A stretch of DNA of 64,000 nucleotides from Planctomycetota bacterium (lineage in GTDB: Bacteria > Planctomycetota > B15-G4 > JADJEK01): assembly GCA_044225365.1 (NCBI GenBank), contig JBGAIQ010000012.1:83345-147344 (forward strand), given 5' to 3'. A program made the translations under genes and the position numbers. The stretch's first letter is position 1, and every line of letters begins with the position of its first letter. This document shows, in pieces, positions 4,600 to 49,051 of this stretch. The notes beneath the pieces were generated by a model. The model was not told the origin of the DNA. It ran no database searches and worked only from the letters and a program-made list of their open reading frames with translations.

Positions 4600-5415
4600 T
4601 TATTGCAGCGACTTCCCGAGAACTTCGCGCTTCATTTCGACCCCGACCGGGCAGTGGTCTGATCCTTGGATGTGGGGGTCGATCCAAGCGCGCTGGAGAA
4701 AGGGCGCGGCGCCGGGCGATGCGAGGACGTAGTCGATCCGCCATCCGATGTTCTTCTCGCGGACGCCGAAGCGTTGGCTCCACCAGGTGTAGTGCCCCGG
4801 TCCCGTCTCGTAGTGGCGAAAGGTGTCGATCCAACCGGCGTCGAGCCAGCGATCCAATTCCTGGCACTCCTCGGGGCAGAAGCCGCTCGTCTTGCGATTC
4901 TCCTTCGGTCTTGCGAGGTCGATCTCGCGGTGCGCGGTGTTGAAGTCTCCCATGACGATGAGCGGACGGCCGCGCCGGAAATCGGTCTCCAGGCGCTCGA
5001 AGACCCGGCGGTAGAAGGCGAGCTTGTACGGGATGCGGCTGTTGTCGCGATCCTTCCCCGAACCGTTCGGGAAGTAGGCGTTCACCACGCCAAAGTCTCC
5101 GAATTGGACGAGCTGGTAGCGGCCCTCGACATCGAAGTCGGGGTGGTCGAGCGAGGTCTCGATGGCGTCGGGCTTCAGTTTCGAGAAGAGCGCGACCCCG
5201 CTGTACCCCTTCCGCTGCGCACTCACGAAGTGGGAGTGGTATCCGGGCGGCTTCTTGTGGCGGTCGGGGAGGTCGTCCTCGGTCGTCCTCGACTCCTGGA
5301 TCCCGAGGACGTGCGCGCGGGAGTCCCGCAGGTAGTCGAAGAAGCCCTTGCCGGCGCAGGAGCGCAGTCCGTTGACGTTCCAACTCACGATCTTGATGTG
5401 CTTCGACGGCGCCAT
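4600..5415 (-). CDS. xth: Exodeoxyribonuclease III
   Basis: SWNVNGLR, GIQE, KGYSGVA, YFPNG, GDFNTAH, GWRIDY and GSDHCP motifs. TATGAT lies 6 nt before the ATG at 5415. Confidence 0.95.
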   Translation of the reverse strand: MAPSKHIKIVSWNVNGLRSCAGKGFFDYLRDSRAHVLGIQESRTTEDDLPDRHKKPPGYHSHFVSAQRKGYSGVALFSKLKPDAIETSLDHPDFDVEGRYQLVQFGDFGVVNAYFPNGSGKDRDNSRIPYKLAFYRRVFERLETDFRRGRPLIVMGDFNTAHREIDLARPKENRKTSGFCPEECQELDRWLDAGWIDTFRHYETGPGHYTWWSQRFGVREKNIGWRIDYVLASPGAAPFLQRAWIDPHIQGSDHCPVGVEMKREVLGKSLQ

Positions 5416-5633
5416 AAGGGAATCATAGGGTTGTCGCGGCGGACGGCGGCTTGCCCTTCTTCGGGTTTTCCTGAATGCACGCTGGTACGACCTGGGTTCG
5501 AATTGCTGCGCCGGCGGGGATGACGTCGACACCGCCGGGTACCCCAACCCGTGCGAACTCGGCGGGCGACGCGTTTATCCAATTTCAATCGACTTGGTTC
5601 TGGCCGGGATTGCGGGCGCACAGCCGTGCGCCC

Positions 5634-9939: not shown

Positions 9940-12900
9940 TCAGAACCCGATGTTCATCGTTTCGTCGTGGCCCGCCGCGATCGTCACGTTCTTCACGATC
10001 TCCGGATCGTCGCCGAGTTTCACGCGAACGCGATAGTCGCCCGCCGGCAGGTCGAACCACTCCTGCGTCGGCGCCGTGAGACTCTCGTTGACGGCGAAAG
10101 GGACACCCTTCGTGTCCTCGACGACGAGACGGCATCGTGAAGCGAAAGCGATCTGATCCGGAGTGGCGGGCTTCTTCATCCACGACACGGGAGGAAGCCG
10201 CGGATCGGTCAGTTCGAAGATCAGGCTACCGCCGAGGATCGCTTCGATATCGAAGATCGCGTCCTTCTGTCCGGACCCGATCACGAGGATTCGGTCGGCG
10301 GCGACGGTATAGGATTTCATTCCCTGGTAGCGAATGGAGAACCGGATGAAGGGACGCCAGCGACCCGGTGCGAGGCCTGCAACCTCGTAACGTCCGTCGA
10401 CGACTTTCGTCATCTCCGTCGATTCTCCCTTCTCCGAGCGGAATTGGATCATTGCGCCCGTGAAGTTCGCTCCCTGCGGTGCGACGACGCGGCCGCGCGC
10501 GACGACGCCCACCTCGAACGCGAGCACGATGGGTGGCGCATTGTGATCCTTGGGGATCTCGACGTGCTCGAGGTCGATGCCGCGATGACCCGGGGCGCGA
10601 GCGCGAACGCGGTAGACTCCCGGCTCGAGCCCTACGATGCGAAAGCGTCCGGGTGCATAGCGTTCGACCGGCCGCCACAAACCGTTTTGTATGAAGTCGA
10701 CGTTGAATTCGAAGAGCGGCGCGCCGGTACTTGCGTCGCTCGCGGTCCCCTCGATAACGCGATCCTTGCTGCGAGGGCCGGGAAGCGGAAGCACGAGTTC
10801 GATCGCGACGCTCGATGGAACGATCGAGGTCGCGGCCACGGTGACGAACTCGTTCGCACCCGAGCGCTCGTCGAATCCCTCGCCGCCGGCGACGATGCTC
10901 GATCCCGACGCGGGAAGCGCGCGCAACGTGAATCTTCCGAGACTGTCTGCGCGAGTCGAATCGAACTCGTACAGTGCGGGGAACTGCGACGCTCTGCGAA
11001 GCTCCATCAATGCGTCGAGGTCGACGAACGCCGCGCCGATCGGAGTCTCCGGGGCGAGGGCGCGCACCTTCGCATACGCTGCGGGCGACCCATCGATGAA
11101 TCGAACGACGCCGTGCAGCACTTCCGCACGCTCGAGGACGACTGTCCGTTCGGACTCTGCGGGTGCGTCGGGCGCCACGTCGAACGGGCCGATGTCTTGC
11201 GTCACGAATCCTTCGGCGAGGACGCGAATCGCGTCGACGTGAACGGGCTTGGCGTCGTCTTGTTCGACGCGCATCGCGAGAACGATCCTTCCATCGCGGT
11301 CGGCGGCTCTCGCATAGGCCTTCTCCGCCACTGACGCAGCCCGGGCGTGCTCGATGGGTTTGCCCTCTCGATCGACGACTCGCAGTAGGATCGCGGAATC
11401 CGCGTCGAGCACCAGATCGGGGGCCGTCACGGACTTTCCCGGGACGACGACGACATCGACCGTGGCTTCACGATAGGAATAAGGCCGCTGCGTGAACAAC
11501 TTGATCGCGGGACTCTCCTTGTCGCCGTCCGCTCGTTTTGCGGGGACCGAATGGAGTCGATAGGAACCGTCTTCGCCGGTGTGCGCGACTTCGACATACC
11601 CGGGCGGCGATTCCGCCCAGTGCCAATCATAGGGAGCTGCGAAATTATAATTGGCCGCGACGAGAGCCCCGACGACCGGCTTGCCCATCGAATCGACGAC
11701 CCGACCCTCGACCGATGCGACGCCCGATAGTTCGAGCTTCACCTTCTTCGTCTCACCTCGCGCCGGCAGGACGATCATGGAGGCGTCACGCCCGTAGTTC
11801 GGACCGAGCGTCGCGATCACGTACCCGGAGATCGCGCCCGCCGTGGTGAACGTGTTCGCCGGGACTTCGTGGAATCCGAGTGAGGGGATTCCGGTGATCG
11901 TGAACTCGCCCTTCTCGTCGCTCTTCGTCGCTCCGAAGCGCTCGCCGCGCCATGGCGCGACTCGGGGCCGTTCGAAGGGTCTCTCCACGAGATCGGCTCC
12001 GAGCGACGATTCGAACCAGACGTCCGCGCCGGCGATCGGCTTGCCCGTTCCGGCGTCGACGACGACGCCGATCACCGAAGCGCCGTGATGGACCACGAGC
12101 GTGAGGTCGACGTTCGCGCCGCTGTCGTCCTGCTTCATTTCGTAGAGCAGCGGTGCGTATCCAGTCGCCTCGACCTGGAGCATGCCGAGTTCGCCGCGAC
12201 GATTCTCGCCGGCCTCGAGTTGCGCGGGGAAACCGAGGAGAGCGAACCTACCGGCTGCGTCGCTGGTCGCTTCGAGATCGATCGTCGACCGGCCGAGGAC
12301 GCCGAACCAATGGATCGACGCGCTCGCGACCGGCTTGCCGAGTTCGTCGACGACGAGGCCCTCCACCTGTCGCGGACGATCGAGGCGAAGCGTGAGGACG
12401 TCGCCCGGCTTTACCGGACTCTCGTCGAGCAACGCGTAGCCGGTCTTCTTGGCGAGGATCGCGTAGTCGCTCGCTTCGAGGCTGCCCGTGAACGCGAACG
12501 AGCCGTCCGTTCCCGATCGCGCGATACCGGCCTCGCGCGCATGCGCGAGCCCGCCCCGCGAGCCGAACGAGTCGTCGTCGCTCACGAGTTTCAGCTCTAC
12601 GTCGGCGACGGGGTTGTCGCGCGGATCGACGACTCGCCCCCGGATCGTTCGGGAGGGGACGGTCGCTGCGGCGCGATCCGCGTTCTCGCTCGCGCCCTGT
12701 TCCGCTTTGCGGTCGAGCGGAGACTCGCTCTTCGTTCCCCTCGCCGCGGCGCCGCTCGAAGAGTCGACGTCGACCGGGACGACGGACGGATTCGAATGGG
12801 AGGACACGAGGGCAGGTGGATCACCGGATCCCTGCATGAAGAAGATGACGGCGGCGACGAGCGCGATGGCGATCGCGGAAACAGTGAGTTTCACGGCGGC

Positions 12901-13482
12901 GACTCCCGAATACAGCGCAGCGGACGCCGACACCCCGTCGATTGGTACGAGCGGGAGGAGCGCTACCGCGAACGACCGACCGTCTCCTCCGTATTCGCGA
13001 TCCATCTCCGCGCGCAGTCGGTGAAGTCCGCGCTTGAGCCGCGTGCGCACCGTCTCGACGGGCACGCCGAGCGTCGCAGCGATGCGCCGCGGAGGCAGAT
13101 CCTCGTAGTACCGAAGCAAGATGACGTCGCGCGAGGTCTCATCGAGGCGCAGCAAGGCGTCGATGACTCGACGCCGCGCTTCTTCCCGAGCCACGATCTG
13201 CTCGGGTGAGGGTACGACATCGACGCGCGCGGCTTCGCGCTCTCGCCGCGCTCGCGCGCGGCTCGATCGTGAGAAGTCGATCGCGACTCGTTCGACGCAA
13301 CGCGCGAGGAACGCACGAAGGGCACCGCCCGCCGAACTCGCGGGCCGCTCCTCGGCCCGTAGCGTGTTGAGCCATGCCTGTTGCGCGACGTCGTCGCTGG
13401 ACGACGCGTCGTCGAAGAAAAGCACTCCGCGCGCCAGGGCGCGCACGAAGTCATCGTGCTCAAGGAGTTGTTCCGGTGTCAT
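9940..13482 (-). CDS. ECF sigma-70 factor fused via TM helix to long extracytoplasmic carboxypeptidase-regulatory-like repeats
   Basis: Region 2 DDVAQQAWL; region 4 VILLRYYEDL..RRIAATLGVPVETVRTRLKRG; TM AIAIALVAAVIFF; GRVVD..G.P repeats. Confidence 0.85.
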   Translation of the reverse strand: MTPEQLLEHDDFVRALARGVLFFDDASSSDDVAQQAWLNTLRAEERPASSAGGALRAFLARCVERVAIDFSRSSRARARREREAARVDVVPSPEQIVAREEARRRVIDALLRLDETSRDVILLRYYEDLPPRRIAATLGVPVETVRTRLKRGLHRLRAEMDREYGGDGRSFAVALLPLVPIDGVSASAALYSGVAAVKLTVSAIAIALVAAVIFFMQGSGDPPALVSSHSNPSVVPVDVDSSSGAAARGTKSESPLDRKAEQGASENADRAAATVPSRTIRGRVVDPRDNPVADVELKLVSDDDSFGSRGGLAHAREAGIARSGTDGSFAFTGSLEASDYAILAKKTGYALLDESPVKPGDVLTLRLDRPRQVEGLVVDELGKPVASASIHWFGVLGRSTIDLEATSDAAGRFALLGFPAQLEAGENRRGELGMLQVEATGYAPLLYEMKQDDSGANVDLTLVVHHGASVIGVVVDAGTGKPIAGADVWFESSLGADLVERPFERPRVAPWRGERFGATKSDEKGEFTITGIPSLGFHEVPANTFTTAGAISGYVIATLGPNYGRDASMIVLPARGETKKVKLELSGVASVEGRVVDSMGKPVVGALVAANYNFAAPYDWHWAESPPGYVEVAHTGEDGSYRLHSVPAKRADGDKESPAIKLFTQRPYSYREATVDVVVVPGKSVTAPDLVLDADSAILLRVVDREGKPIEHARAASVAEKAYARAADRDGRIVLAMRVEQDDAKPVHVDAIRVLAEGFVTQDIGPFDVAPDAPAESERTVVLERAEVLHGVVRFIDGSPAAYAKVRALAPETPIGAAFVDLDALMELRRASQFPALYEFDSTRADSLGRFTLRALPASGSSIVAGGEGFDERSGANEFVTVAATSIVPSSVAIELVLPLPGPRSKDRVIEGTASDASTGAPLFEFNVDFIQNGLWRPVERYAPGRFRIVGLEPGVYRVRARAPGHRGIDLEHVEIPKDHNAPPIVLAFEVGVVARGRVVAPQGANFTGAMIQFRSEKGESTEMTKVVDGRYEVAGLAPGRWRPFIRFSIRYQGMKSYTVAADRILVIGSGQKDAIFDIEAILGGSLIFELTDPRLPPVSWMKKPATPDQIAFASRCRLVVEDTKGVPFAVNESLTAPTQEWFDLPAGDYRVRVKLGDDPEIVKNVTIAAGHDETMNIGF

Positions 13483-13644: not shown

Positions 13645-16368
13645 GTGAACGATCCTTCGGATGGAGTACCCGAAAATCCGGAAATGGAAGCGAATCGAGC
13701 GAACGAAGGCCGAGGCGCGAGTCCAGCGCAGAACCACCCCGCCCCGCGAACCGGCGAGCGGACCTACGTCATCTACTTCGTTCTCGCGGTCTTCGGATTC
13801 CTGGCCGTCGTCCTCGGACTCGTCCTCAACCGCAAGCTGATCGAACTGCAGGTCGAGTCGGGCCGACAGGGTGAGATGTTCGCGACGGTGATCGACGATC
13901 TCAGCGAACTCGGCCGCCTTGCCGCGAACGCCAACGGCCCCGGCAACCACGTATTCGAGTCGCGCGAATTCGATATCGAGGAGAAGAACCTCGACGCTGC
14001 CGCGAACGTCCTCCTCGCCAAGATCGAAACGTGTCGGAAGCGCTTCGCGGAGGAAGGATCGGAACCGCTGGGCGACACGGTGTTCGATGGCATCTCACCG
14101 ATCGAGGAACTGGCGCGGTCGATGATCGACCGGGGTCACGAGATCTTCGCGGCGATGAGGGCGGGGAACTTCGAGTCCGCCGACAAGGCGATGTCGAAGA
14201 TGGACACTCTCCTCTACAAGGTCGTCGAGCGAGTCGCAGCCTTGCAGCACGAGGTGACCGAGAAGGCCAAGAGCGCGAACGAGTCGCGCGAGCGAGAGGC
14301 GCAGGACCTGCGCGGATTCGGCAACGGGCTGTCGACGCTCGTCATCCTGCTCGTCACCATCGTCACGATCTACGGCTTCTTCCTCACGAAGCGAACCGTA
14401 CTCGCGACGGCCGACCGAGAACGGTTGCACCGCAGTGTCGAGGCCGCCGAAGCCCGATTGCGGACGATCCTCGAGCAGGCGCAGGACGGGATCCTGCATG
14501 TCGCCGAGTCCGGTGTAGTCGAGACGCTCAATCGGGCCGTGGCCGAGATCTTCGAGATCGAGCCGCGCGAGGTGCTCGGACGAAGAGTCGAGTTCCTCGT
14601 GCCCGAGCTCGGAACTCGGGTGCGCGAGATCGAAGGTCAGCTCGTCGAACTCGTAGGCAAGCGGCCAAGCGGCACATTTCCCCTCGAAGTGGGCGTCAGC
14701 GCGATGACCCTCGGGGGCGAACGGCACTACATTGCGATCCTGCGCGACATCACTGAGCGCAAGCGATTCGAGGCCGAACTGATCGCCGCGCGACGCGATG
14801 CCGAAGCTGCCGCCAAGGCCAAGTCGGAATTCCTTGCGACGATGAGTCACGAGATCCGAACGCCGATCAACGGCGTCATCGGAATGACGAATCTCCTCCT
14901 CGAATCGGAATTGCGTCCCGAGCAGCGCGAATGCGCCGAAAGCGTTCGAGATTGCGCGGACCATCTGCTCGCGATCATCAACGACATCCTCGACTTCTCT
15001 CGCTACGAATCCGAGCGCATCGAGCTCGAGGAGATCGACATCGAGGTGGAGGGCGTGATCGAACAGGTCGTCGACCTGATGGGACCGGCCGCTCGCGCGA
15101 AGGGACTGGAACTCTTGTATCGAATCGAGAGTGGCGTGCCTCGGTACGTGAAGAGCGATCCGGCGCGGTTGCGTCAGATCCTCGTCAATTACGTGAGCAA
15201 CGCGATCAAGTTCACGACCCGTGGCGAAGTGGAGATCGGCGTCTCAGCGATCGACGAGCCGGGGGCTGCGTCGCGCCTGAGGTTCGCCGTGCGCGATACC
15301 GGAATCGGGATTCCCGCCGAGCGCGTCGATCGCCTGTTCCGAATGTTCTCGCAGGTCGACGCATCGACGACACGGCAGTTCGGCGGAACGGGGCTCGGGC
15401 TCGCGATCTGTCGGCAGATCGCCGAGCGAATGGGCGGGGAGGTCAGCGTGAAGAGTGAGCCGGGAGAGGGCTCTACGTTCTTCGCGACGGTGAAAGTGGA
15501 ATCGGCCGAGAAAGAACGAATCGCCAGCACGTCGATCGACCCGTCGTCGCTCATCGGAAAGAAGATCGTCGTGGTCCTCACGAGTGAGACGGCGCGGAGG
15601 ATCGTGAAGGATTGGATCGACGCGACGGGCGCCGCGTGTTTTCCATGCGCGGACTTGGACGCCGCGATCGCGTTCTGGCGCACCGGATCGTGCATCATCG
15701 ACCTCGTGGTGCTCGAAGAGCCTCGCGATCCCTCGGCCGCGACCCGCACGAAGTTCCAGGAAGTGCAGAATCGCGAACTCGCGCCCGGCACTCCGCGGAT
15801 CCTGATCTCGAGTGCCGGCGTGTTGCTCGATCAAGCTCGCGCCCTCGCCCTCGGTTATCGCGGTGTGCTATCGAAGCCACTCCGTCGATCGCAGCTGATG
15901 CAGCGGCTCCTTGCCGTGTTCGTCGGGACCGACCGAACGATCGACGAAGGCGGCGTCGCGAGCCCGGCGGCGAATGGGAACGACAGGAGCCACCGCATCC
16001 TGGTCGTCGAGGACAATCCCGTGAATCAGAAGATCACGCAGCGATTACTCGAGAAACGTGGCTACGCGGTGACGATCGCGGAGAACGGACGAGCCGCGAT
16101 CGAGGCGCTCTCGACCGCGCTGGACGGTGATTTCGATCTCGTGCTCATGGATTGTCAGATGCCGGAGATGGATGGCTTCTCGGCGACTCGGGCGATCCGC
16201 GCGCTTCCTGGGACGCGATCACGCACGCCGATCATCGCGATGACGGCGAATGCTCTCGCTGACGATCGTGATCGCTGCGTCGAGGCGGGGATGGACGACT
16301 ACATCTGCAAGCCGGTTCGAGTGGGCGAACTCGACGCCATGATCCAGAAAGTACTCGCGCGGTCGTAG
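13645..16368 (+). CDS. Hybrid sensor histidine kinase/response regulator (2 TM, PAS, HisKA, HATPase, degenerate REC + REC)
   Basis: FLATMSHEIRTPINGVIG, NAIKFT, DTGIGI, GGTGLGLAIC and LVLMDCQMPEMDG. The start could be 13684. Confidence 0.93.
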   Translation: MNDPSDGVPENPEMEANRANEGRGASPAQNHPAPRTGERTYVIYFVLAVFGFLAVVLGLVLNRKLIELQVESGRQGEMFATVIDDLSELGRLAANANGPGNHVFESREFDIEEKNLDAAANVLLAKIETCRKRFAEEGSEPLGDTVFDGISPIEELARSMIDRGHEIFAAMRAGNFESADKAMSKMDTLLYKVVERVAALQHEVTEKAKSANESREREAQDLRGFGNGLSTLVILLVTIVTIYGFFLTKRTVLATADRERLHRSVEAAEARLRTILEQAQDGILHVAESGVVETLNRAVAEIFEIEPREVLGRRVEFLVPELGTRVREIEGQLVELVGKRPSGTFPLEVGVSAMTLGGERHYIAILRDITERKRFEAELIAARRDAEAAAKAKSEFLATMSHEIRTPINGVIGMTNLLLESELRPEQRECAESVRDCADHLLAIINDILDFSRYESERIELEEIDIEVEGVIEQVVDLMGPAARAKGLELLYRIESGVPRYVKSDPARLRQILVNYVSNAIKFTTRGEVEIGVSAIDEPGAASRLRFAVRDTGIGIPAERVDRLFRMFSQVDASTTRQFGGTGLGLAICRQIAERMGGEVSVKSEPGEGSTFFATVKVESAEKERIASTSIDPSSLIGKKIVVVLTSETARRIVKDWIDATGAACFPCADLDAAIAFWRTGSCIIDLVVLEEPRDPSAATRTKFQEVQNRELAPGTPRILISSAGVLLDQARALALGYRGVLSKPLRRSQLMQRLLAVFVGTDRTIDEGGVASPAANGNDRSHRILVVEDNPVNQKITQRLLEKRGYAVTIAENGRAAIEALSTALDGDFDLVLMDCQMPEMDGFSATRAIRALPGTRSRTPIIAMTANALADDRDRCVEAGMDDYICKPVRVGELDAMIQKVLARS

Positions 16369-20670: not shown

Positions 20671-20749
20671 ACGGAGCAAATCGCCGTTTGAATGACGATC
20701 CGCGTCGACGTACTCTGCGCGCGAATCACCGTCGAATGGATTCGCAGCG

Positions 20750-39900: not shown

Positions 39901-40305
39901 ATGACGGGCGATCTCGCACTCTCTCGCATCGCGCAGATCGCGATGAACGTGTACGACCTCGACCGCGCGGTGCGTTTCTATCGCGACGTGCTCGGCTTGA
40001 AGTTCCTCTTCTCCGCGCCTCCGCAGCTCGCATTCTTCGATTGTGCGGGCGTTCGCCTCTTGCTCGACGTCTCCAAGGAGAAGGAATTCCAGCACCCGGG
40101 ATCGATTCTGTACTTCGCTGCGGAAGAGATCGACGCGATGCATCGCGCCCTCGTCGCGCGGGGCGTCGTGTTTCGCCGGGATCCCCATCTCGTCGCGAAA
40201 CTTCCGGATCGCGAAGTGTGGATGGCGTTCTTCTCGGACACCGAGGGCAACACCCTGGCGCTGATGTCGGAGCGGAAGGCGGGAGAGATCACTTCGCGGG
40301 TTTGA
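39901..40305 (+). CDS. VOC (glyoxalase/bleomycin resistance) family protein
   Basis: QIAMNVYDLDRAVRFYRDVLGL and MAFFSDTEGN motifs. Confidence 0.9.
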   Translation: MTGDLALSRIAQIAMNVYDLDRAVRFYRDVLGLKFLFSAPPQLAFFDCAGVRLLLDVSKEKEFQHPGSILYFAAEEIDAMHRALVARGVVFRRDPHLVAKLPDREVWMAFFSDTEGNTLALMSERKAGEITSRV

Positions 40306-41455
40306 ACGCCGACGCCCCAAAGGAACGCGCAGGGCTCGCCGGCGCGACGCGCAGATCGCCCTTGCTCGGATCGCGGAAGTGTGGATCGAATCCGCCCGCT
40401 GGCTCTTTCTCCTCGACGGGCAATTTGGGCGCGCCGGCGAGCGGGTCGTCGTAGTCGAACCAGTAGTTTCGAGCGAACTCGAACGAATCGGCCGCGGTGT
40501 CGGGGCCGATGTTGACGATGTCGTGGACTTCGCTCCTTCGCAGAGCGACGAGGTTGTCGGTGAAGCGGCCGTTGCGGCAGGGGACGAATCCCGGCTGCTT
40601 CGTCTCCTGGAGGATTCGCAAGCACCATTTCGCGGGACGGTAGAACGTGTTGAAGGAGACGGTCGCGCCATCGACACCGACGAACGCAATCGGCGCCTCG
40701 GAGCCGACGAACGTGCTGCCTTCGACGATGATGTCCTTCGCTTCGTAATGCTCACCCTCGCCGAGCGCGGGCCGGAAGTACTCGAGTCCGGTCGACCCGC
40801 CGATATTGACCGCGCGCGTTCCGGCATATTCGAATCTGCATTGCGTGATGCGCACGTCGCGCGAGCCACCCTTCATCTGGATGCCGCTCGCCGCCGTGTC
40901 GATCGCTCGATCGAGGAGCGAGCAGTTTGCGATCACGCCGCGGTGGCAGCCGACCATGTCGATCGCCGAGCCGCCGCGTCCCCAGCGCTCGATCGTGCAT
41001 CCCTCGAGCAGGAAGTCGTCCACGCCCGACAGCTTGATTCCATCCTCGTTGCCGCGTTTGCCGCAATCGCGCACCGTCACGCGTCGCAACGTGACGTGAT
41101 GCGAAGGCGTCTCCATCGTTCCGGCGTCGTCGATGTTGAGTCCGTTGGCGGGAGCGCCTTCGAAGACGAGTCCCACGAGTTCGATGTACTCGACGTCCGA
41201 AGCCTGCACCCCGCTCACGATCGTGGGCGGCGACTTCTCGTCGGCCGCTTCGACGACGATCGGATGCTCGCTCGACCCCTTCACGTTCGCGACGAAGAAG
41301 CCCTCGTACCGACCGGGCGCGACCAGGATGCGCGCGCCGGGCTTCGCGTCCTTCAGCGCCGAGACCAGCGCCTCGGTCGTCGACACGGAAACGTCGCCGT
41401 CTCCTGGCGCCGTCAGGGACGAGTACAGGACGCCGGCGAGGAGGATGTCGATCAT
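40289..41455 (-). CDS. Right-handed parallel beta-helix repeat protein
   Basis: AKPGARILVAPGRY, DGIKLSGVD, IDMVGCH and GIQMKGGS beta-helix repeats. Confidence 0.8.
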   Translation of the reverse strand: MIDILLAGVLYSSLTAPGDGDVSVSTTEALVSALKDAKPGARILVAPGRYEGFFVANVKGSSEHPIVVEAADEKSPPTIVSGVQASDVEYIELVGLVFEGAPANGLNIDDAGTMETPSHHVTLRRVTVRDCGKRGNEDGIKLSGVDDFLLEGCTIERWGRGGSAIDMVGCHRGVIANCSLLDRAIDTAASGIQMKGGSRDVRITQCRFEYAGTRAVNIGGSTGLEYFRPALGEGEHYEAKDIIVEGSTFVGSEAPIAFVGVDGATVSFNTFYRPAKWCLRILQETKQPGFVPCRNGRFTDNLVALRRSEVHDIVNIGPDTAADSFEFARNYWFDYDDPLAGAPKLPVEEKEPAGGFDPHFRDPSKGDLRVAPASPARSFGASAFKPAK

Positions 41456-41535: not shown

Positions 41536-41958
41536 ATGGAAACGCGGAACTCGAACTGGAACTTCGGATCGTGGTTCGGATCGCAATTCGGTCTCACGGT
41601 CTGGATGCTCGTCTTCTCGATGGTGCTGGTCGCGACCGACATCGCGAGCGCCGCGGTTGCGTTCGTCGCCTTCGTTGCGGCAAATGCGGTCGGCGTCCAT
41701 CTCTGGCGACAGCGTGAGCAGCGCGATCACCTGTCGTCGTTGATGACCCTCGTGTTCGTTGCGGGAGTCGCGAGCGCGGTCACGTTCGTCACCGTCAGCG
41801 TTCGCGATGCCTGGCCGAAGGGCAGTCTCGCGGGTCTCATGAGCCTCCCCGCGAATGGGTCGAGCGGCGCCACCTATCTTTGGCTGCTCGTGTATCCCGT
41901 CGTCGGCCTCGTGATGTACCTCGCGCTGAAGAAGCGCGGTCGCAGCGTCATTTCGTGA
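41536..41958 (+). CDS. Hypothetical membrane protein (about 4 TM)
   Basis: Hydrophobic helices; TAGGAT lies 7 nt before the ATG. Confidence 0.65.
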   Translation: METRNSNWNFGSWFGSQFGLTVWMLVFSMVLVATDIASAAVAFVAFVAANAVGVHLWRQREQRDHLSSLMTLVFVAGVASAVTFVTVSVRDAWPKGSLAGLMSLPANGSSGATYLWLLVYPVVGLVMYLALKKRGRSVIS

Positions 41959-44674
41959 AGACGGTCGTCGTCAGTACCGACGGCTGAACATCGATCGTCC
42001 GCTCGGCGAACGTCGACTTCTTCGCAGTGATTCGCAGCGTGTAGCGACCTGGAACGAGGTCGGGCTCGACGATGTTCTCGTAGCCGATCGAGATGAACTT
42101 ACCGAGGATACGGCCGTATCCGCCGCCACCGATGATCACGATCGAGCGGTTCACGATCACGTGATCGGAGGATTCGATCTCGAGCCCCGCCATCTCGAAT
42201 TCGTCTTTCGAGTAGCCGTCGAAGCGAACGAGCAATCGCCCCGCGGGCGCCAGCGCGACTTCGTGGGTGAGAGGCGAGCCGGCGATCAGGGCGACCTCGA
42301 ACTCCTCGGGCGCGTAGATGTTGCTCGCCTTCAGGCGTGTGGCGTCGTCGTCGCTCGCGATCTGGATCTTCCATCGGCCGGGGGAGAGTCCGTCGAGGAC
42401 GATTCGCCGCTCGGTCCATCGCTTCTTGTCGTTGATCGGCTGGAGGGAAGGATCGTCGAGCGAAGTCATGACCACACGGACGGAGGGGTCGTCGTGGAGC
42501 ATCGGCGAGGTCGTCGTGAGGACGAGTGTTGCGGTCTCGCCCGCGGAAGAGAAGTCGGCGACTCTTCGCGTTTGCTCGCCGCGCCCTTTCGCCGGAATGT
42601 CCATCTCGATCGATCGCCGGCCGGGCGAGTTCACGACGACATGCAAGTCCATCTCGGGCGTGCACAGGAAGCCGACCTCGCCGCCCGTCTCCAGGAAGCG
42701 ATGCTCGAACCCGTTCTCTTCGACGACGAAGGAGACGCCGGGCAAGAGCGCGCCGTTGCGCTCGGCGACGAGCGTGACGAGTTGTGAACCGTCGTCGAGG
42801 ACCACGTTCTTCGCGGGCGCCGTGACTTCCACGATCGCACTGCGCTGAAGCGGCACGTAGCGACCGCCGACGTGCTCGACTGCGATCTCGTGTTTGCCGG
42901 GCTCGATCCCGACGAATTCGAAGCGGCCGTTCGCATCCGCCATGGCGGAACGGATCCTGCGTTCGAAGCGGTCGCCGATGCGATCGAGCGAATCGAAATT
43001 CGTGGGCGTCGCGCCCCTCGGCACAGAAGCACGCGGGTCCAAGACGATCGAGCTTCCTCGCGGCGAGATTCCCGCCGGCACCTTCAGGATCCCGGACAGA
43101 CTCACGCCGCGTTTCTCCAGCGTGATCGTCCCGACGTCGATCGATTCCCCGCGCCTCGCGAATCCCGTCGCGACGGCCGCCGACAAGCGCGGATGCGACA
43201 CCACGACGAGCACTTCGCCCTCGGCGTCGATCATCGTTTCGAATCGACCCGTGGATTCGAGTCGCGTTTCCATGCACGCCTCGGCCTCGGGGCGATCGAA
43301 CGCGGCCCTCTCGAAGATGCCGACCTGGAATTCCCAATCGCTATTAGGAGCGGGCAACGCGACCTGCCCCGTCACGGTGGCGCCGAGCGTGGGAGTGAAA
43401 TCGCGGTGGATCTCGATGCGCTCGTCGGGCGCACGCGTCTTGAAGGCCTCCTCGGGCAGCCAGCGCTCCGTCTTGGCGAAGACGAGCGGGTGACGCACGG
43501 TGACGTCGAGCCAGGGTCGCTTCGGTCGTTCGTCCTGTTCTTTCGTCGTCGGGACCGAGGCTTCGATCGAGCTGCCGACCGCGACGATCCTTATCGGCGG
43601 GGCCTCGAATCGCGAGGTGAGGTCGACGACGAACGAGCCGTCCGCTTCAACGGGCGCGTTCAGCGATGCCGTGCGATTCTCGAGCTGGATCGCGAGCTTC
43701 GCGGATTCGGGATGGTGCGCGCCGAGACCGAGGATGCGACCAACGAGATAGAACCCGGGAGGGCCGGAATTGCTTTCGCCGGTCGAAACGGTCGCGGGAA
43801 CGGCGTCGCGTACTTGTTCGTCCGCGGCGGCGGGGCTCGACAGCAACGGTGCGTCCGTCGCGATCTGCGGCGGTGTCGGCGCGGTCGAGGAGGCGTTCGA
43901 AGGCGAGCCCGCCTCCCCGCGAGGGCGCAGCGCATTCGCCGTTCCGAGCACGACGACGATCGCCGCCATCACCGCGATCCAGGTCTTCGCCGACATGAGT
44001 CCTCCGATCGCGAGCAGGCTCGCGCCGCCGAACAGGAGTTTCGCCTTCGCCACTCGCGTCGCCTCGTCGAGCACCGCGGCCTTCATCGCGGCGTGACCGC
44101 GGGATGGCCATGCGAGCACGAGCGCACCTCCGAGCGACGGAGGGAGCGCCGCTCGCAACAGGTCGAGTCCGCGGTGGAGTTGGATGCGAACCGTTCCCGG
44201 CGAGCGCGAGAGATCGGTGGCGACGTCTCCCGGCTTCATGCCATCGAGGACGACGCGGCGCACGACTTCGCGATAGAGCTCGGGAAGGCCGACGATGGCG
44301 GAGGAGATCGCGACGCGAGCCTCGTCCGCCATCGCGGCCCGTTCGGGATTCGGCGCGCTCGAAATGGACTCGAGTTCTGCGTGATGCGCTCGGCCCGAAC
44401 GAGCGGCATCGCGACGCGCCTTGCTTCCCTGTTTCGCGAGGATTCCGAGGAGCCACGGCATCAGCGGTCGATTCACATCGAAGCGCCGAGCATTCGTCAA
44501 CGCCGCAACGAAGGTCGCCTGGACCAGGTCCTCCGCGGAGGCGATGTCCCCGACGAGTCGCGTCGCGACGCGCATCATCTCCGGCGCGGCACGATCGAAG
44601 AGCGCCTCGAAGGCGGCGATATCGCCGTCGTCGACGAAGCGGCGAAAGAGAATGGCGAGCGGGATCGTGTCCAC
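41948..44674 (-). CDS. ECF sigma-70 factor fused to TM and extracytoplasmic beta-sandwich repeats
   Basis: AEDLVQATFV, PWLLGIL and DVATDLSRSPGTVRIQLHRG; TM segment; carboxypeptidase-regulatory-like modules. Confidence 0.85.
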   Translation of the reverse strand: MDTIPLAILFRRFVDDGDIAAFEALFDRAAPEMMRVATRLVGDIASAEDLVQATFVAALTNARRFDVNRPLMPWLLGILAKQGSKARRDAARSGRAHHAELESISSAPNPERAAMADEARVAISSAIVGLPELYREVVRRVVLDGMKPGDVATDLSRSPGTVRIQLHRGLDLLRAALPPSLGGALVLAWPSRGHAAMKAAVLDEATRVAKAKLLFGGASLLAIGGLMSAKTWIAVMAAIVVVLGTANALRPRGEAGSPSNASSTAPTPPQIATDAPLLSSPAAADEQVRDAVPATVSTGESNSGPPGFYLVGRILGLGAHHPESAKLAIQLENRTASLNAPVEADGSFVVDLTSRFEAPPIRIVAVGSSIEASVPTTKEQDERPKRPWLDVTVRHPLVFAKTERWLPEEAFKTRAPDERIEIHRDFTPTLGATVTGQVALPAPNSDWEFQVGIFERAAFDRPEAEACMETRLESTGRFETMIDAEGEVLVVVSHPRLSAAVATGFARRGESIDVGTITLEKRGVSLSGILKVPAGISPRGSSIVLDPRASVPRGATPTNFDSLDRIGDRFERRIRSAMADANGRFEFVGIEPGKHEIAVEHVGGRYVPLQRSAIVEVTAPAKNVVLDDGSQLVTLVAERNGALLPGVSFVVEENGFEHRFLETGGEVGFLCTPEMDLHVVVNSPGRRSIEMDIPAKGRGEQTRRVADFSSAGETATLVLTTTSPMLHDDPSVRVVMTSLDDPSLQPINDKKRWTERRIVLDGLSPGRWKIQIASDDDATRLKASNIYAPEEFEVALIAGSPLTHEVALAPAGRLLVRFDGYSKDEFEMAGLEIESSDHVIVNRSIVIIGGGGYGRILGKFISIGYENIVEPDLVPGRYTLRITAKKSTFAERTIDVQPSVLTTTVFTK

Positions 44675-44682
44675 GCCCTTAC

Positions 44683-44708
44683 TTACCTCCCGGGGCGGAT
44701 TCGTTACA
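44683..44708 (-). promoter_or_regulatory. Putative ECF promoter TGTAAC-N16-GTAA
   Basis: Conserved with 47481-47506 at identical spacing; 8 nt upstream of the GTG start. Confidence 0.6.
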
Positions 44709-44735
44709 CGCTCCCGGCGGGGGATCCGCGAATTC

Positions 44736-47471
44736 CTACGGTCGCAGAACGGCGTTCGTCGTCTTGCCGGCTGCGAGCGTGACCGTCAGGGGTGCGAGAG
44801 GATGCTCGTGGCTGCGCGACGTGATCGTATACGTGCCCGGTGGAACGTTCGGAATCATGTAGTTCGTGGTGCCCGGTTCGAGGCGACGTGAGCGAACGTA
44901 GCCCGGCTTCACCCACGCCGAGAATTCGCGGTCGACGCGCTCGCCCTGCGCGTTCGTCACTTCGACTTCGATCAGGTCCCCGTCGAGCGGGCGCAAGGGC
45001 ATCCCCTCGGTCGAGATCGTGAGGCGGGCGACCTGCGGCATTCGCAATTGGATTTGCGTCGTTTGCTGCGACGCCAGATCGACGTCGAAGTCCTCCTCGG
45101 CGATCACCGGCCCGAACATCGCGGCGGGCTCGCGACCCTCGGCGCCGGGCTCGACGTGGACGTGGACTTTGCCGGGCTCGAGATCGCGCAGCAGCAGATG
45201 GCCGCTCGTGAAGCGCCGTGTCACGATGATCGGCGACGCTGCGGACTCGCCGGTTCGACTCGGCGAGATGGTGATGGCGACGACGCCGTCGAAGTCCTGG
45301 TTGGCCTGCGGTGCCACGAGCTCGAGCGCCGCATCGGCCGCCCTCGTCGCGAAGTCCGCGTGGTACGTCGATTCGAAGACGCGCGACGCCGCCGGAATCT
45401 TCAGGACGATGGGAGTCGATCCGGGACGTGTGACGGTGGCCGTCACATCGACGTCGGAGTAGGCGAGGAATCGCAGCTCGCCGCCGTCGCGACTCGAGAA
45501 TCCGGTGCGATCGCGCGCGGTCTCGATCTCGATCTTCGCCCCCGTGTCGGGCGCGCCGTTCTTGGTCACGAGGATCCGGATCGACTGGACGTTCTCGCCG
45601 AGCACGACATCGCTGTGCGGCGCAGTGACACGGATCGGCTCCTTCGGCTTCATCAGGAACGAGTCGTCGCCCGTGAGCGGCAAGGAGAGCTGATATTCGC
45701 CGGGTTCGAGTCCATCGATCGAGAACTCGCCCGCCGAATCGGACTGCGCGCTGCCCGACGCCACGTGCCATCCATCCGCGCCGTGGGTCATGCCGCCGAA
45801 CGTGACGAGCTTCTCTCCCGCATCGCGCTTCGCTTCTCGGCGGGCATGGATCCGGCATTCGTCGGATCGCAGCGGCGAGGGGAACCGGACGCGCCCCGCG
45901 ATCGCGACGCCTCCGCGAGAAGGGCGGAGGATCCCGACGTCGAGCGTCTCGCCGAGTCTCGCGCGACCCTTGGCGACCGCGGGTTGCAGACCCTGGTGAT
46001 ACGTCACGACCTCCACGTCGCCCTCGATCTCCGAGGCGACGACGAAGCGCCCATTCGCATCGGTCGTCGCCGTGAACCGTGGTTCGATCACCTTGCCCGC
46101 GAACGAGCTCGCGTCGAAGATGCCGACCATCGTCTCGCCGGTTTCTCCATCGTCCCGCTTCACCTCGCCTTGGATCACGCTCGCGAGCGATACGTCGATG
46201 TCGCGACGGACCTCGCGCGGCGCGTTCGCGTCTCGCAGCGAAGGGCGCACATCCGCGAAAGGATGACGGTGCACGCGCGGCTCGACGAATTCGTGCCGAA
46301 CGAGGATCGCGAGATCGTCGCTCGTCGCGGAATGCGGCTCGCTGGCCTGCTCCGTGGTGATGCGCCCGGGGCCGGCCGTTTTGGTCTCCCGCTCGCCGGC
46401 GATGGCTCCTTCTGCGAGAAGCGGCGCGAGATCGCACTCGTACGACCCATCGGGGTGGACGGGCACGCGCAACGGACTCGATCCTCGCAACGAGACCTCG
46501 AGCGTTGCAGATTCGGGATGGTGGTTCTCGAGCCCCTTCACGCGCCCGAAGAGGCGAAGTGTCGCCGCCGCGGCGGGTTCGCGCGAAGCGTCCTTGGAGG
46601 CGGCTTCCATCCGTCGAACGGGATCGCTCGTGGGAGCCGAGACGGTGCTCCGATCGTCGCGGACCGATTCGACGGTCGGTGACCTTGCGGACGTTGGGGC
46701 CGAACTCGGAGCAACGCCCGGTCGCCCGCCGCCATCGTGCGAGAGATAGGAATAACCGAGGGCCGCGAGCAGCGCCGCGACGAGACCGAACTTGAGCGAC
46801 ATGAGGCCTCCTCCCGCTAGGAGCGGGGCAAGGGCTCCCGCGGCGGTCTTGGTTCTCGTGAGTCCCTTCGCGTACTCGAGGACTCTCTCCTTGATCGCGC
46901 CTTCGCCCCGCGAGGGCAAGGCGAGCACGAGCGCGGTGGCGAGCGAGGGCGGCAGCGACGAGCGCAGGAGGTGCAGTCCGCGTTGGAGCTGCATCCGAAC
47001 CGTTCCGGGAGGCCGCCGAAGTTCGTTCGCGATGTCGATCGGCTTCTTGCCGTCGAGGACGCGCTGCATGACTTCGCGATAGAGCATGGGCAGCGAATCG
47101 AGCGCGGCGAGAAGGGCGTTCTTCTGTTCCGTATCGACGATTCGATGGGTCGGATCGACGATGGGTTCGGCCTCGATGCGCGCGGGATCGATCCTTCGGC
47201 GGGCACTGCGCCGCGACTTCGCCGCGAGCTTGGTCAGGATGCCGACGAGCCACGGGACGAGGCGCTGTTTCGCATCGAATCGATGGCGGCTCGTGAGCGC
47301 GGCGACGAACGTCGCTTGGACGAGGTCGTCGGCATCGGTCACGTCGCTCGTGAGGCGTGCCGCGAGGGCGAGCAGTTCGGGCGCGGTGCGGTCGAAGACG
47401 GCCTCGAGCGCGGCGAGGTCGCCCTCGTCACGGAAGCGGAGGAACAGCGTTTCGAGGGTGATCTCGTCCAC
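44736..47471 (-). CDS. ECF sigma-70 factor fused to TM and extracytoplasmic beta-sandwich repeats (tandem paralog)
   Basis: ADDLVQATFV, PWLVGIL and DIANELRRPPGTVRMQLQRG; same architecture as the downstream gene. Confidence 0.85.
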   Translation of the reverse strand: MDEITLETLFLRFRDEGDLAALEAVFDRTAPELLALAARLTSDVTDADDLVQATFVAALTSRHRFDAKQRLVPWLVGILTKLAAKSRRSARRRIDPARIEAEPIVDPTHRIVDTEQKNALLAALDSLPMLYREVMQRVLDGKKPIDIANELRRPPGTVRMQLQRGLHLLRSSLPPSLATALVLALPSRGEGAIKERVLEYAKGLTRTKTAAGALAPLLAGGGLMSLKFGLVAALLAALGYSYLSHDGGGRPGVAPSSAPTSARSPTVESVRDDRSTVSAPTSDPVRRMEAASKDASREPAAAATLRLFGRVKGLENHHPESATLEVSLRGSSPLRVPVHPDGSYECDLAPLLAEGAIAGERETKTAGPGRITTEQASEPHSATSDDLAILVRHEFVEPRVHRHPFADVRPSLRDANAPREVRRDIDVSLASVIQGEVKRDDGETGETMVGIFDASSFAGKVIEPRFTATTDANGRFVVASEIEGDVEVVTYHQGLQPAVAKGRARLGETLDVGILRPSRGGVAIAGRVRFPSPLRSDECRIHARREAKRDAGEKLVTFGGMTHGADGWHVASGSAQSDSAGEFSIDGLEPGEYQLSLPLTGDDSFLMKPKEPIRVTAPHSDVVLGENVQSIRILVTKNGAPDTGAKIEIETARDRTGFSSRDGGELRFLAYSDVDVTATVTRPGSTPIVLKIPAASRVFESTYHADFATRAADAALELVAPQANQDFDGVVAITISPSRTGESAASPIIVTRRFTSGHLLLRDLEPGKVHVHVEPGAEGREPAAMFGPVIAEEDFDVDLASQQTTQIQLRMPQVARLTISTEGMPLRPLDGDLIEVEVTNAQGERVDREFSAWVKPGYVRSRRLEPGTTNYMIPNVPPGTYTITSRSHEHPLAPLTVTLAAGKTTNAVLRP

Positions 47472-47480
47472 GCCCTTCTC

Positions 47481-47506
47481 TTACCGCGAAGGGCGGGATC
47501 GTCACA
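47481..47506 (-). promoter_or_regulatory. Putative ECF promoter TGTGAC-N16-GTAA
   Basis: Conserved with 44683-44708; 9 nt upstream of the GTG start. Confidence 0.6.
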
Positions 47507-47521
47507 CGAATCCGCGAGAGG

Positions 47522-49027
47522 TCAGTGTTTTTCGCCGCCGGGAGCCGGCGGTGGGGAAGGAGCGGCGCCGGGCGCGATCGCTGGAATCGCAAGCTGTCCC
47601 TGTCGCGCATAGTCGATCGCCTCGGCGAGGATACGCGCGACTTCTTGCGGCGCATGGAAGCCCATCGAGTTCTCGGCGGCGACGAAATCGCAACGCCATT
47701 GCGCCTTGCGATGGAGCGCGCGCGCGGCCTTGAGCTGGTCGTCGGTGCCGCCCGCAGCCTTGGCCTTCTCGAGCGCGTTGATGAGGTCGACCGTGGCATT
47801 CTCGGCGCGATCGAGCAGCGCATGCGAGCGTTCCTGGATCGTCGTCACGCGGGCGAGGATCTCGGTCTCCGGCACGACGTGACACGTCTGGCAGGCGCGG
47901 TTCACGTTGAGCAGCGGGCTGCGCACGTGGTGGTCGCTGATCTTCACGGCGCCTTCGCGCATGTACGGCATGTGACAGTCCGCGCACGCCACTCCGGCCC
48001 GGGCGTGAATGCCCTGGCTCCACATCTCGAATTCGGGATGTTGCGCCTTCAAGGTGTTCGCACCGCTCTTCGCGTGCACCCAGTCCTTGTGGCCGACGTC
48101 GTCGTAGTAGCGTTCGATCTGTTCGACCTTCAGCCCGTTCATCCACGGATACGTGAGCAGCTTGCCGTCGCCCTTGAAGTAGTACTCGACGTGGCACTGC
48201 GCGCAGACGAGGCTGCGCAGTTCCTGGCGCGATGCTTCGGCATTGGGATCGTAATCACCTTTCATGCCGCCTTTTCGCCAACGCTCGATCGATGGCAGGT
48301 GCGGGACGGGATCGTCGCTCTTCGCGAGCGCGCGAAGGCCATTCAGGACGCCTGGCCGCGTGATGCGCAGCTGCATCGAATCGGGATCGTGGCAGTCGAG
48401 GCACGTCACGGGATGATCGACGAGCTTGGTCGCGTCGTTGTACGGCATCGCGCAGACCTTCTCGAATCCGGCGAAGAGCTGCGCCTGGCCGTTCGCGGAG
48501 AGCAGCGGATCCGTGAGCGCGCCGGGAGCGCCGGCCTTCAGGCCCTGATCGCGGTAGGCGGGGATGTTGGACGCGTGGCAATGCAGGCACGCGCCGGGCT
48601 GTGCTTTCTTCGTGACGCGCTCCGTCTCGCGCTGATCCTTCAGCATGTACGCGTGGCCGCGATCCTCGCGATAGTCGATGGAGAACGCGTAGCCCGCGAA
48701 GATCGTTCGCAGCTTCGGGTCGTCGTCGAGCTTCTGAATCGCTTCGGAGCCGCCGAACTTCGTGCGTTCGACGTCGACGGTGCGGCGGTAGGCGTCGTAC
48801 TGCCGCGGGTAGTTCTTGCCCCATTCCGCGGGGTCGACCGTCGTCTCGTCGAGATTGGCGACGCGGAAGACGGTCTCGCGCGCTTCGACCTTGCGGTCGC
48901 GAATGTTCTCGATGAGGAGAAGGCCGCCCACGGTCGCGAGCGCGGATCCGACGAGCAGGATTGCCGGGATCCCGATTCCGCCGCGAGTTCGATTCCGAAT
49001 GAGGAAGGGCCGATTCGATTCGTTCAT
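47522..49027 (-). CDS. nrfA: Ammonia-forming cytochrome c nitrite reductase, catalytic subunit
   Basis: Five heme motifs (CLHCH, CLDCH, CAQCH, CADCH, CQTCH); FAGYAFS..Y.EDRGH; KAQHPEFE; AENSMGFHAP. Confidence 0.93.
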   Translation of the reverse strand: MNESNRPFLIRNRTRGGIGIPAILLVGSALATVGGLLLIENIRDRKVEARETVFRVANLDETTVDPAEWGKNYPRQYDAYRRTVDVERTKFGGSEAIQKLDDDPKLRTIFAGYAFSIDYREDRGHAYMLKDQRETERVTKKAQPGACLHCHASNIPAYRDQGLKAGAPGALTDPLLSANGQAQLFAGFEKVCAMPYNDATKLVDHPVTCLDCHDPDSMQLRITRPGVLNGLRALAKSDDPVPHLPSIERWRKGGMKGDYDPNAEASRQELRSLVCAQCHVEYYFKGDGKLLTYPWMNGLKVEQIERYYDDVGHKDWVHAKSGANTLKAQHPEFEMWSQGIHARAGVACADCHMPYMREGAVKISDHHVRSPLLNVNRACQTCHVVPETEILARVTTIQERSHALLDRAENATVDLINALEKAKAAGGTDDQLKAARALHRKAQWRCDFVAAENSMGFHAPQEVARILAEAIDYARQGQLAIPAIAPGAAPSPPPAPGGEKH

Positions 49028-49051
49028 CTTCGTGCTCTCGTTCAAGCGGGA

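Follow-up and report, generated by a model that had tools for sequence, protein, structure and literature searches.

Within a 64,000-nt stretch of a Planctomycetota genome (assembly GCA_044225365.1, contig JBGAIQ010000012.1, positions 83,345 to 147,344; hereafter the window), three genes, designated A, B, and C, are predicted to encode an extracytoplasmic function (ECF) sigma factor joined, by a cytoplasmic linker of approximately 50 residues and one transmembrane (TM) helix, to a large extracytoplasmic Ig-like region of the CarboxypepD_reg type. Each gene contains, in frame, a Shine-Dalgarno (SD)-like motif and an ATG or GTG codon inside the coding sequence, and the question raised by this arrangement is whether the internal codon serves as a second start, so that one gene specifies two proteins. 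This proposal was made in an earlier note on the same DNA, which offered as an alternative that the sites are fossil junctions of once separate sigma and anti-sigma genes. Reading of the sequence located the three motifs and start codons at exactly the coordinates that had been reported, on the minus strand and in frame (Table 1). In A, B, and C alike, the site directly precedes x-K and the helix, in agreement with the claim that the starts sit at the membrane anchor. The motifs had also been described as built from GGA in a window in which GGC appears to dominate; a GGA codon is indeed part of the motif in each of the three genes, and glycine codon usage in the genome is GGC 0.539, GGA 0.168, GGG 0.152, and GGT 0.141.

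Genes A and B are tandem paralogs (approximately 50% identity across the first 270 residues), and are therefore not independent and count as one observation. To enlarge the sample, the genome holding the window (the own genome) was searched with tblastn, which retrieved 51 ECF loci comprising 38 long fusions (>500 aa) and 13 short ECF open reading frames (ORFs). The fusion paralogs often occur in tandem arrays, with four on contig C23 within 14 kb and four on C47; paralogs are also located on C31, C33, C59, C76, and other contigs. Fused relatives were present in 16 of the 21 genomes searched (own genome included), among them every one of the 11 further genomes from that family, which span six other genera. 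A scan of species-representative genomes detected 469 relatives in 598 candidate stretches, and the best 80 of these 469 were kept; nearly all of those kept are labelled as Planctomycetota metagenome-assembled genomes (MAGs), the label of a few being simply "bacterium", and several are on megabase-length contigs or a chromosome-level record. Removal of identical sites gave a working set of 133 members (own genome, 38; other genomes, 95). Family members are 27–48% identical in protein across the sigma-to-TM region.

The TM core of each member was defined as the most hydrophobic uncharged 15-mer and the anchor as the closest upstream Lys or Arg (K/R); a start was scored if an in-frame codon lay within 8 codons upstream of this residue. 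Such heuristic rules misplace some members, and the counts are lowered as a result. An ATG or GTG was found within 8 codons of the pre-TM K/R in 110 of the 133 members. The own genome contributed 23 ATG, 8 GTG, and 2 TTG codons, with no candidate in 5 members, and the other genomes 51 ATG, 28 GTG, and 4 TTG codons, with none in 12. Since Met accounts for 1.0–1.1% of the residues of these proteins, an ATG is expected in about 9% of 9-codon windows; it was observed in 23/38 and 51/95 members of the own and other genomes, respectively (binomial p of 8e-15 and 2e-28).

The identity of the start codon was also examined with an anchor that is blind to it, namely an in-frame GGA-G alone, which was available for 76 of the 133 members. 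The fourth codon after GGA (+4) was ATG in 35 members, GTG in 27, and GTC in 1, so that valine at this position was encoded by GTG in 27 of 28 cases. At codon +3, valine was encoded by GTC 16 times and by GTG twice. GTG makes up 33–42% of the Val codons elsewhere in the genes of the family. Following dereplication by single linkage at 60% identity, the ratio of GTG to GTC was 21 to 1 at +4 and 2 to 12 at +3 (Fisher 8.7e-7). Thus, Met and GTG-coded Val are interchangeable at +4 whereas GTC-coded Val is not, which is the pattern of a start codon and not that of a residue preference or a pause site. The residue that follows the internal start is mainly Ser, Lys, or Ala.

The SD-like motif was scored as GGAG or GAGG with a spacer of 4–10 nt, and compared to a synonymous null in which the six upstream codons were resampled from the usage of the same genes, keeping the peptide fixed (3000 trials). 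The motif was present ahead of 74 of 116 pre-TM start codons, as opposed to approximately 16 expected by resampling. The excess was observed both in the own genome (18/33 versus 5.3 ± 1.9, maximum 11) and in the other genomes (56/83 versus 10.4 ± 2.9, maximum 21), and GGAGG itself was present at 40 sites of the other genomes (null of 5.9 ± 2.2). Dereplication to 115 clusters led to 64/101 versus 14.8 ± 3.3 (maximum 26, again over 3000 trials). The SD-like 4-mer and the ATG or GTG codon were associated with one another, 84 members having both, 26 the start only, 8 the SD only, and 15 neither (odds ratio of 6.1, p = 2.7e-4). Base counts at positions −12 to −8 over 48 sites were G41, G38, A28, G32, and G24, corresponding to GGAGG followed by 7 nt, and the consensus of the family is GGA-GGN-N6-ATG/GTG.

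Codon choice within the motif was then considered position by position. Glycine preceding a codon that starts with G was encoded by GGA in 55 of 67 cases at the site versus 12.2% elsewhere in the same genes (Fisher 2e-37); for the own genome, the corresponding values were 17/22 and 17.7%. Among Gly-Gly pairs at sites of the other genomes, the first codon was GGA in 40 of 42, and genome-wide GGA is the first codon in 8.2% of 10531 Gly-Gly pairs. The second Gly codon varied (GGA 22, GGT 12, GGC 5, and GGG 3), indicating that only the third base needed to form GGAGG is fixed. At three further Gly columns conserved in these genes, GGA was used by 7/78, 16/85, and 7/42 members. The check that had been proposed for the two-protein idea, which was to compare homologs at the DNA level for an excess of GGA and for SD strength against the synonymous expectation, was therefore strongly positive. 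These comparisons indicate that the site is under purifying selection, at the nucleotide level, for an SD and a start codon. The second Gly codon is itself skewed away from GGC, the most frequent Gly codon in the remainder of these genes (0.46), which is consistent with an extended SD (GGAGGU) or with selective pressure to keep the initiation region open and rich in A/T.

The 3' end of the 16S rRNA of the own genome reads ...GGATCACCTCCTTTCT (given also as ...CACCUCCUUUCU). At the first starts of 3798 long ORFs with a coding-type GC pattern, GGAG, GAGG, and GGAGG peak at spacers of 5–9 nt (5–7 nt for GGAGG), and at 20737 internal ATG codons GGAGG occurs about once per 1000 per position. The spacing in the family matches that of the real starts of the genome. 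Predicted folding of the region from −30 to +19 was weaker than that of control windows of the same genes (−12.6 versus −17.2 kcal/mol, n = 110, Wilcoxon 1.7e-15), and GC content dropped at the site to 0.52–0.54 from 0.72–0.76; both effects are in part due to the Lys codons. As a control, K/R-preceded internal TM-like segments were collected from ORFs of the own genome outside the family. Only 45 of 1448 (3.1%) displayed an ATG or GTG together with GGAG or GAGG, and many of the 45 are genuine gene starts with signal peptides located inside over-long stop-to-stop ORFs. The motif is thus not a general property of pre-TM positions. SD-stimulated frameshifting at the K-K codons, 12–13 nt past the SD, was rejected on inspection, since NNG AAG AAG does not conform to the X XXY YYZ pattern of a slippery heptamer and the frame stays open.

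In the predicted short forms, M-x-K-K leads into the TM helix, which is followed by the complete ectodomain (682, 688, and 984 aa for A, B, and C, respectively). Since they lack a cytoplasmic domain, they cannot be classical anti-sigma factors. A cleavable signal peptide was considered and set aside, as the hydrophobic stretch of about 18–20 or more residues, often ending in Trp, Tyr, or Phe, better fits a signal anchor. Searches with tblastn revealed that the own genome also contains separate genes with the build of the short form and no sigma part, encoding M-x-K/R, a TM helix, and a homologous ectodomain (Table 1). Their products are 25–32% identical to the fusion ectodomains across 250–760 aa (up to 32% across 650–760 aa), and most of these genes have a GGAG- or GAGG-like motif upstream from the start. 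The existence of such genes indicates that a protein of this build is viable alone. When the 682-aa short form of gene A served as the query of a word-based protein search, gene A was the sole match, because the ectodomains diverge too fast for this type of search. For the short ECF ORFs, the next ORF starts in an ATGA overlap with the stop codon in 5 of 13 cases, which are probably classical sigma/anti-sigma pairs; some of the ORFs that follow short ECF genes have, by eye, a Cys-rich, zinc-finger-like N-terminus. The junction within the fusions does not look like this ATGA overlap.

The 5' starts of the fusions differ from the internal sites, as an SD-like motif according to the same criterion was found at the candidate 5' start of 20 of 116 members. 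Genes A and B both lack GGAG or GAGG at 4–10 nt from their GTG start, as the earlier note had observed for two of the full-length genes. A promoter-like motif precedes the 5' start of both (Table 1), and NNAAC-N15-18-GACAA/GTAAG, an ad hoc pattern used with no shuffle control, was found in 22 of 133 members, 6–12 nt (mostly 7–12 nt) ahead of the 5' start. Promoters recognized by ECF sigma factors have a −35 element containing AAC and a short −10 element. The motif suggests an ECF-dependent promoter giving a leaderless or nearly leaderless mRNA, and perhaps implies autoregulation. In other paralogs, the motif reads G(G/T)AAC-N15-16-GACAAT. Beyond A and B, promoter-like motifs were noted on contigs C23 and C47 of the own genome and at loci L002, L007, and L044.

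Of the readings considered, the proposal that one gene gives two proteins is the best supported, since the test based on homologs and synonymous codons was strongly positive; the evidence is comparative throughout. We consider it likely that the internal start yields a stand-alone, signal-anchored ectodomain devoid of the sigma factor alongside the full-length fusion. Initiation at the 5' end, usually at a start without an SD, would produce the membrane-tethered sigma/sensor fusion, and in a subset of members the ECF-like promoter is so near the 5' start that the mRNA would probably be leaderless. The putative working site located ahead of the TM helix (GGAGG, 7 nt, ATG or GTG, x-K-K, hydrophobic helix) would direct synthesis of a second protein that shares the TM helix and ectodomain but lacks the sigma factor and has only 3–4 cytoplasmic residues, inserted as a type II signal-anchored protein. 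The short form may be produced in excess over the weakly initiated full-length form, for which it might act as a partner, decoy, or effector. Release of the sigma factor from the fusion would require proteolysis, by analogy with IutY (see below).

These steps could be combined into a complete signalling circuit contained in each gene, although that all of them hold jointly is doubtful. In such a circuit, the mRNA transcribed from an ECF-type promoter would be leaderless, ribosomes would seldom initiate at its 5' end and would thereby provide few tethered sigma/sensor molecules, and the strong internal SD start would provide many sigma-less copies of the sensor. The untethered copies, as decoys or partners, would set the threshold for proteolytic release of the sigma factor, which, once freed, would act on its own promoter, and sensitivity would be tuned by how initiation is divided between the leaderless and the SD-led start. 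Dozens of these circuits would operate side by side in planctomycetes.

Several observations weigh against internal initiation. About one third of the members lack the full signature (the 26 with a start only, the 8 with an SD only, and the 15 with neither), although some of these are errors of the TM-anchoring rule. The Gly-rich peptide supplies part of the SD-likeness, as revealed by a crude duplex-energy test in which the null was already −5.09 compared to an observed value of −6.45 (z = −3.4). That test relied on a 19-mer TM anchor, which missed gene B and the GTG cases, and was replaced by the K/R- and GGA-anchored tests. The members are kin by descent, so that the p-values overstate independence, although dereplication changed little. 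The members from other genomes were gathered with queries of subfamily A, and subfamily C is represented by the own genome alone. Gene A is itself atypical, with GGAGG only 4 nt ahead of the ATG versus 7 nt in the family consensus. Finally, elongating ribosomes can mask an SD-like site located inside a translated ORF.

Selection on the motif could have a purpose other than initiation. Internal SD-like sites have been proposed to cause pausing in the synthesis of membrane proteins, and GGAGG might be such a site, or another mRNA signal, slowing the ribosome before the TM helix with no separate protein made and with the Met or Val as a mere residue. Nucleotide selection on the motif, its fixed position relative to the helix, and the eight members that keep an SD-like 4-mer without a nearby ATG or GTG would all fit a pause. 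However, pausing would not call for a start codon, and 62 of the 76 GGA-anchored members have ATG or GTG as codon +4, with valine encoded by GTG in 27 of 28 cases there and by GTC in 16 of 18 at the adjacent codon. The co-occurrence of SD and start codon and the lack of the motif at other pre-TM positions (45/1448, many of them true gene starts) also argue against pausing, as does the fact that the ribosome would stall before any part of the TM helix had been made. We consider this explanation improbable. A conserved protein motif, G-G-x-x-M-x-K-K, combined with a local codon bias unrelated to initiation would account for the conservation of Gly-Gly and K-K as residues, and resampling did show that the amino acids alone provide some SD-likeness. 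The bias is limited, however, to the bases that form the start codon and GGAGG; in the second Gly codon the third position is free, and valine is encoded in opposite ways at +3 and +4. Moreover, the SD is formed in the same register by other residue pairs (Gly-Val as GGA GTC, Gly-Ala as GGA GCN, and Gly-Ser as GGG AGY), making a protein motif scarcely credible.

Two other explanations accept that the site is, or was, a translation start. According to the first, which is the fossil-junction alternative, the SD and start codon were left by a formerly separate downstream gene and have been neutrally kept by descent since the fusion. The site is located exactly where a separate TM-ectodomain gene would begin, and such genes exist in the genome; this account is plausible for the origin of the site, which it may describe. 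It does not explain retention, because the third bases of GGA and GTG are held across members that are 27–48% identical, a divergence at which neutral silent sites should be randomised, because the downstream product has no cytoplasmic anti-sigma domain, and because stand-alone ECF genes show an ATGA-overlap ORF instead (5/13). In addition, the genome otherwise disfavors GGA for opening a Gly-Gly pair (8.2%), and conservation of the upstream linker (R-G-L-A-A-V-R-x-x-V-L) indicates that the fusion is old and happened once. Neutral persistence of the site is very unlikely. The other explanation holds that the short form is the sole functional product in many members, the sigma part being a decaying or rarely translated relic that is still open in frame. 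Weak 5' starts (SD-like motif in 20/116), stand-alone homologs that work without a sigma factor, and a member on C12 split between sigma2 and sigma4 are in its favor. Against it, Pfam-level similarity and conserved columns persist in the sigma2 and sigma4 regions of the 38 paralogs and their relatives, where no stop codon interrupts the frame, the AF2 model of residues 1–248 of gene A is confident (mean pLDDT of 83.4), and in a subset of members the 5' start is immediately preceded by a suitably positioned ECF-like promoter. We consider it decidedly improbable that the sigma part is a relic. The split member (contig C12, approximately 4700–5500, minus strand) consists of two ORFs, one encoding the sigma2 part and the other, in another frame, sigma4, the TM helix, and the ectodomain; RFYEGLPPRE is present in both ORFs, and this could be a short duplication or frameshift, a pseudogene, or an assembly error.

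A site that yields two proteins from one gene has precedents. In-frame internal initiation, at internal translation initiation sites (iTIS), is described in passages of a survey reporting ArcB-C from arcB and two forms of IF2 from infB (Meydan et al., bioRxiv 10.1101/520783). As in these genes, an SD-like motif and an ATG or GTG are located inside the ORF, in frame and at a domain boundary, and the predicted second protein is truncated at its N-terminus. The features that define an iTIS in the sequence were all found for the planctomycete family, namely an SD-like motif at a working distance from an in-frame ATG or GTG, conservation, and synonymous-site constraint, which makes the sites candidate iTIS. 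The arcB site is reported in the same passages to be conserved in other species (10.1101/520783), and so is the planctomycete site, which spans dozens of paralogs per genome and many Planctomycetota MAGs, unlike the iTIS examples. The planctomycete case also differs in being known from sequence comparison alone and in the nature of the host gene, a sigma/sensor fusion. Finally, ArcB-C is the soluble half of its parent protein, whereas the second protein predicted here comprises the membrane-spanning and extracytoplasmic half.

The host proteins likewise have known counterparts. IutY of Pseudomonas putida is a sigma/anti-sigma hybrid of group ECF243, and ECF52 (SCO4117), ECF48, and ECF53 are predicted to act in the same manner, according to passages of two articles (PMC5411451, PMC8999054). 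The fusions resemble IutY in that a single polypeptide carries an ECF sigma domain at its N-terminus, a single TM segment, and a C-terminal domain outside the cytoplasm, and by this analogy, drawn from the same passages, a tethered sigma factor freed by regulated proteolysis (at site 1 and site 2 in the IutY type) would be their likely mode of action. In contrast to IutY, no FecR-like or zinc-finger anti-sigma domain was found in the fusions with Pfam, and their ectodomain consists of 600–1000 aa of CarboxypepD_reg-like repeats. The passages of the IutY article (PMC5411451) contain no mention of a start codon, translation, or an SD site. As in classical two-gene ECF sigma/anti-sigma operons, the sigma factor and a membrane protein with a sensing part outside the cytoplasm are expressed together in a constant arrangement. 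Unlike in these operons, no stop codon separates the two parts, and the second product, being devoid of a cytoplasmic sigma-binding domain, cannot sequester the sigma factor in the classical manner. No paper linking an internal start to a fused ECF gene was found in open-access text; supplements of the 2021 ECF classification (PMC7826278) may describe the planctomycetal group. Internal initiation and sigma/anti-sigma fusions are thus both known, and their combination is new as far as we found.

Fused sigma/anti-sigma proteins are regarded as one-protein devices, and their regulation is little understood beyond IutY. The 38 copies in one genome and their relatives in many Planctomycetota MAGs appear to make a sigma-less sensor from the same gene. 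If so, models of how fusions are silenced and activated must include the second product, which annotation would overlook for dozens of genes per genome. The family would also make the case that silent-site conservation alone can reveal internal starts in uncultured organisms.

The assembly that holds the window comprises 6.53 Mb in 103 contigs with a GC content of 65.1%. Pfam detected Sigma70_r2 and Sigma70_r4 or r4_2 in the N-terminal part of A, B, and C and CarboxypepD_reg in the long C-terminal part, with four such stretches in gene C. Two matches were slightly under the Pfam cut-offs, CarboxypepD_reg of gene A (30.6 bits, cut-off 32.3) and Sigma70_r4_2 of gene B (24.7 bits, cut-off 25.7), which is the sole r4 match of that gene. 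In gene A, Sigma70_r2 covers residues 25–92 and Sigma70_r4_2 residues 121–171. All three proteins matched TIGR02937 (ECF superfamily) above cut-off in NCBIfam, where no subfamily or equivalog model scored above cut-off and nothing was more specific than the ECF superfamily. With sigma2 and sigma4 as their only sigma regions and matches to ECF models, A, B, and C are ECF (group 4) sigma-70 factors. A single hydrophobic helix is found about 50 residues after sigma4. Neither zf-HC2 nor RskA was matched by Pfam between sigma4 and the TM helix of A, B, and C, the linker of approximately 50 aa being found instead, and FecR was absent among their Pfam matches at E <= 0.01.

The AF2 model of residues 1–248 of gene A contains sigma2, sigma4, linker helices at residues 179–188 and 190–226, and the TM helix. 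The linker segment R-G-L-A-A-V-R-x-x-V-L is conserved and amphipathic (columns 200–215 of a 16-sequence alignment) and is predicted to be helical (block pLDDT of 63–86). The segment might inhibit the protein from within by folding back onto the sigma domains.

Table 1. Coordinates of the fusion genes, their internal sites and associated features, neighboring genes, and stand-alone ectodomain genes. Positions are those of the window except for the last five rows, which carry their own handles.
Feature	Position	Strand	Details
Gene A, ECF sigma/TM/ectodomain fusion	41948–44674	−	908 aa, GTG start, from the ORF list
Gene A promoter-like motif GTAAC-N16-GTAAGT	44681–44707	−	Ends 6 nt ahead of GTG start
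Gene A linker segment	~43997–44140	−	Residues ~179–226
Gene A internal SD-like motif GGAGGA	44000–44005	−	Codons GGA GGA (Gly-Gly), then CTC; anti-SD duplex −9.5 kcal/mol
Gene A internal ATG (Met227)	43994–43996	−	Would begin 682-aa short form (MSAK, TM helix, ectodomain), 43996–41948
Gene A TM helix	43928–43984	−	Residues ~231–249 by hydrophobicity scan; AF2 helix 229–246
Gene B, tandem paralog of A	44736–47471	−	911 aa, GTG start
Gene B promoter-like motif GTGAC-N16-GTAAGA	47479–47505	−	Ends 7 nt ahead of GTG start
Gene B internal SD-like motif GGGAGGAGG	46807–46815	−	Codons GGA GGA GGC, then CCTC; first GGAGG 7 nt ahead of ATG
Gene B internal ATG (Met224)	46800–46802	−	Would begin 688-aa short form, 46802–44736
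Gene C, fusion of second subfamily	9940–13482	−	1180 aa from ATG 13482; alternative ATG 13563
Gene C internal SD-like motif GGGAG	12903–12907	−	tcG GGA Gtc, then 8 nt to GTG
Gene C internal GTG	12892–12894	−	Four codons past the GGA codon; would begin 984-aa short form, 12894–9940
NrfA-type cytochrome c552 nitrite reductase gene	47522–49045	−	Upstream of gene B; Pfam scan of neighbors
Right-handed beta-helix protein gene	40289–41455		Downstream of gene A
Hybrid histidine kinase gene	13645–16368	+	PAS, HisKA, HATPase_c, receiver; divergent from gene C
Stand-alone ectodomain gene	C20 21091–24274
Stand-alone ectodomain gene	C25 24237–27339
Stand-alone ectodomain gene	C25 27491–30701
Stand-alone ectodomain genes	C75, C77, C59
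Stand-alone ectodomain genes	C2, C18

An Rfam scan of positions 41800–47700 retrieved no family at gathering score. The neighbors scanned with Pfam, namely the NrfA, beta-helix, and hybrid kinase genes and a 140-aa ORF with no Pfam match, included no TonB-dependent receptor, to which hybrids of the IutY type are linked. The stop codon of the nrfA-like gene is located 17 nt ahead of the promoter-like motif of gene B. The long ORF of the hybrid histidine kinase overlaps the open region upstream of gene C.

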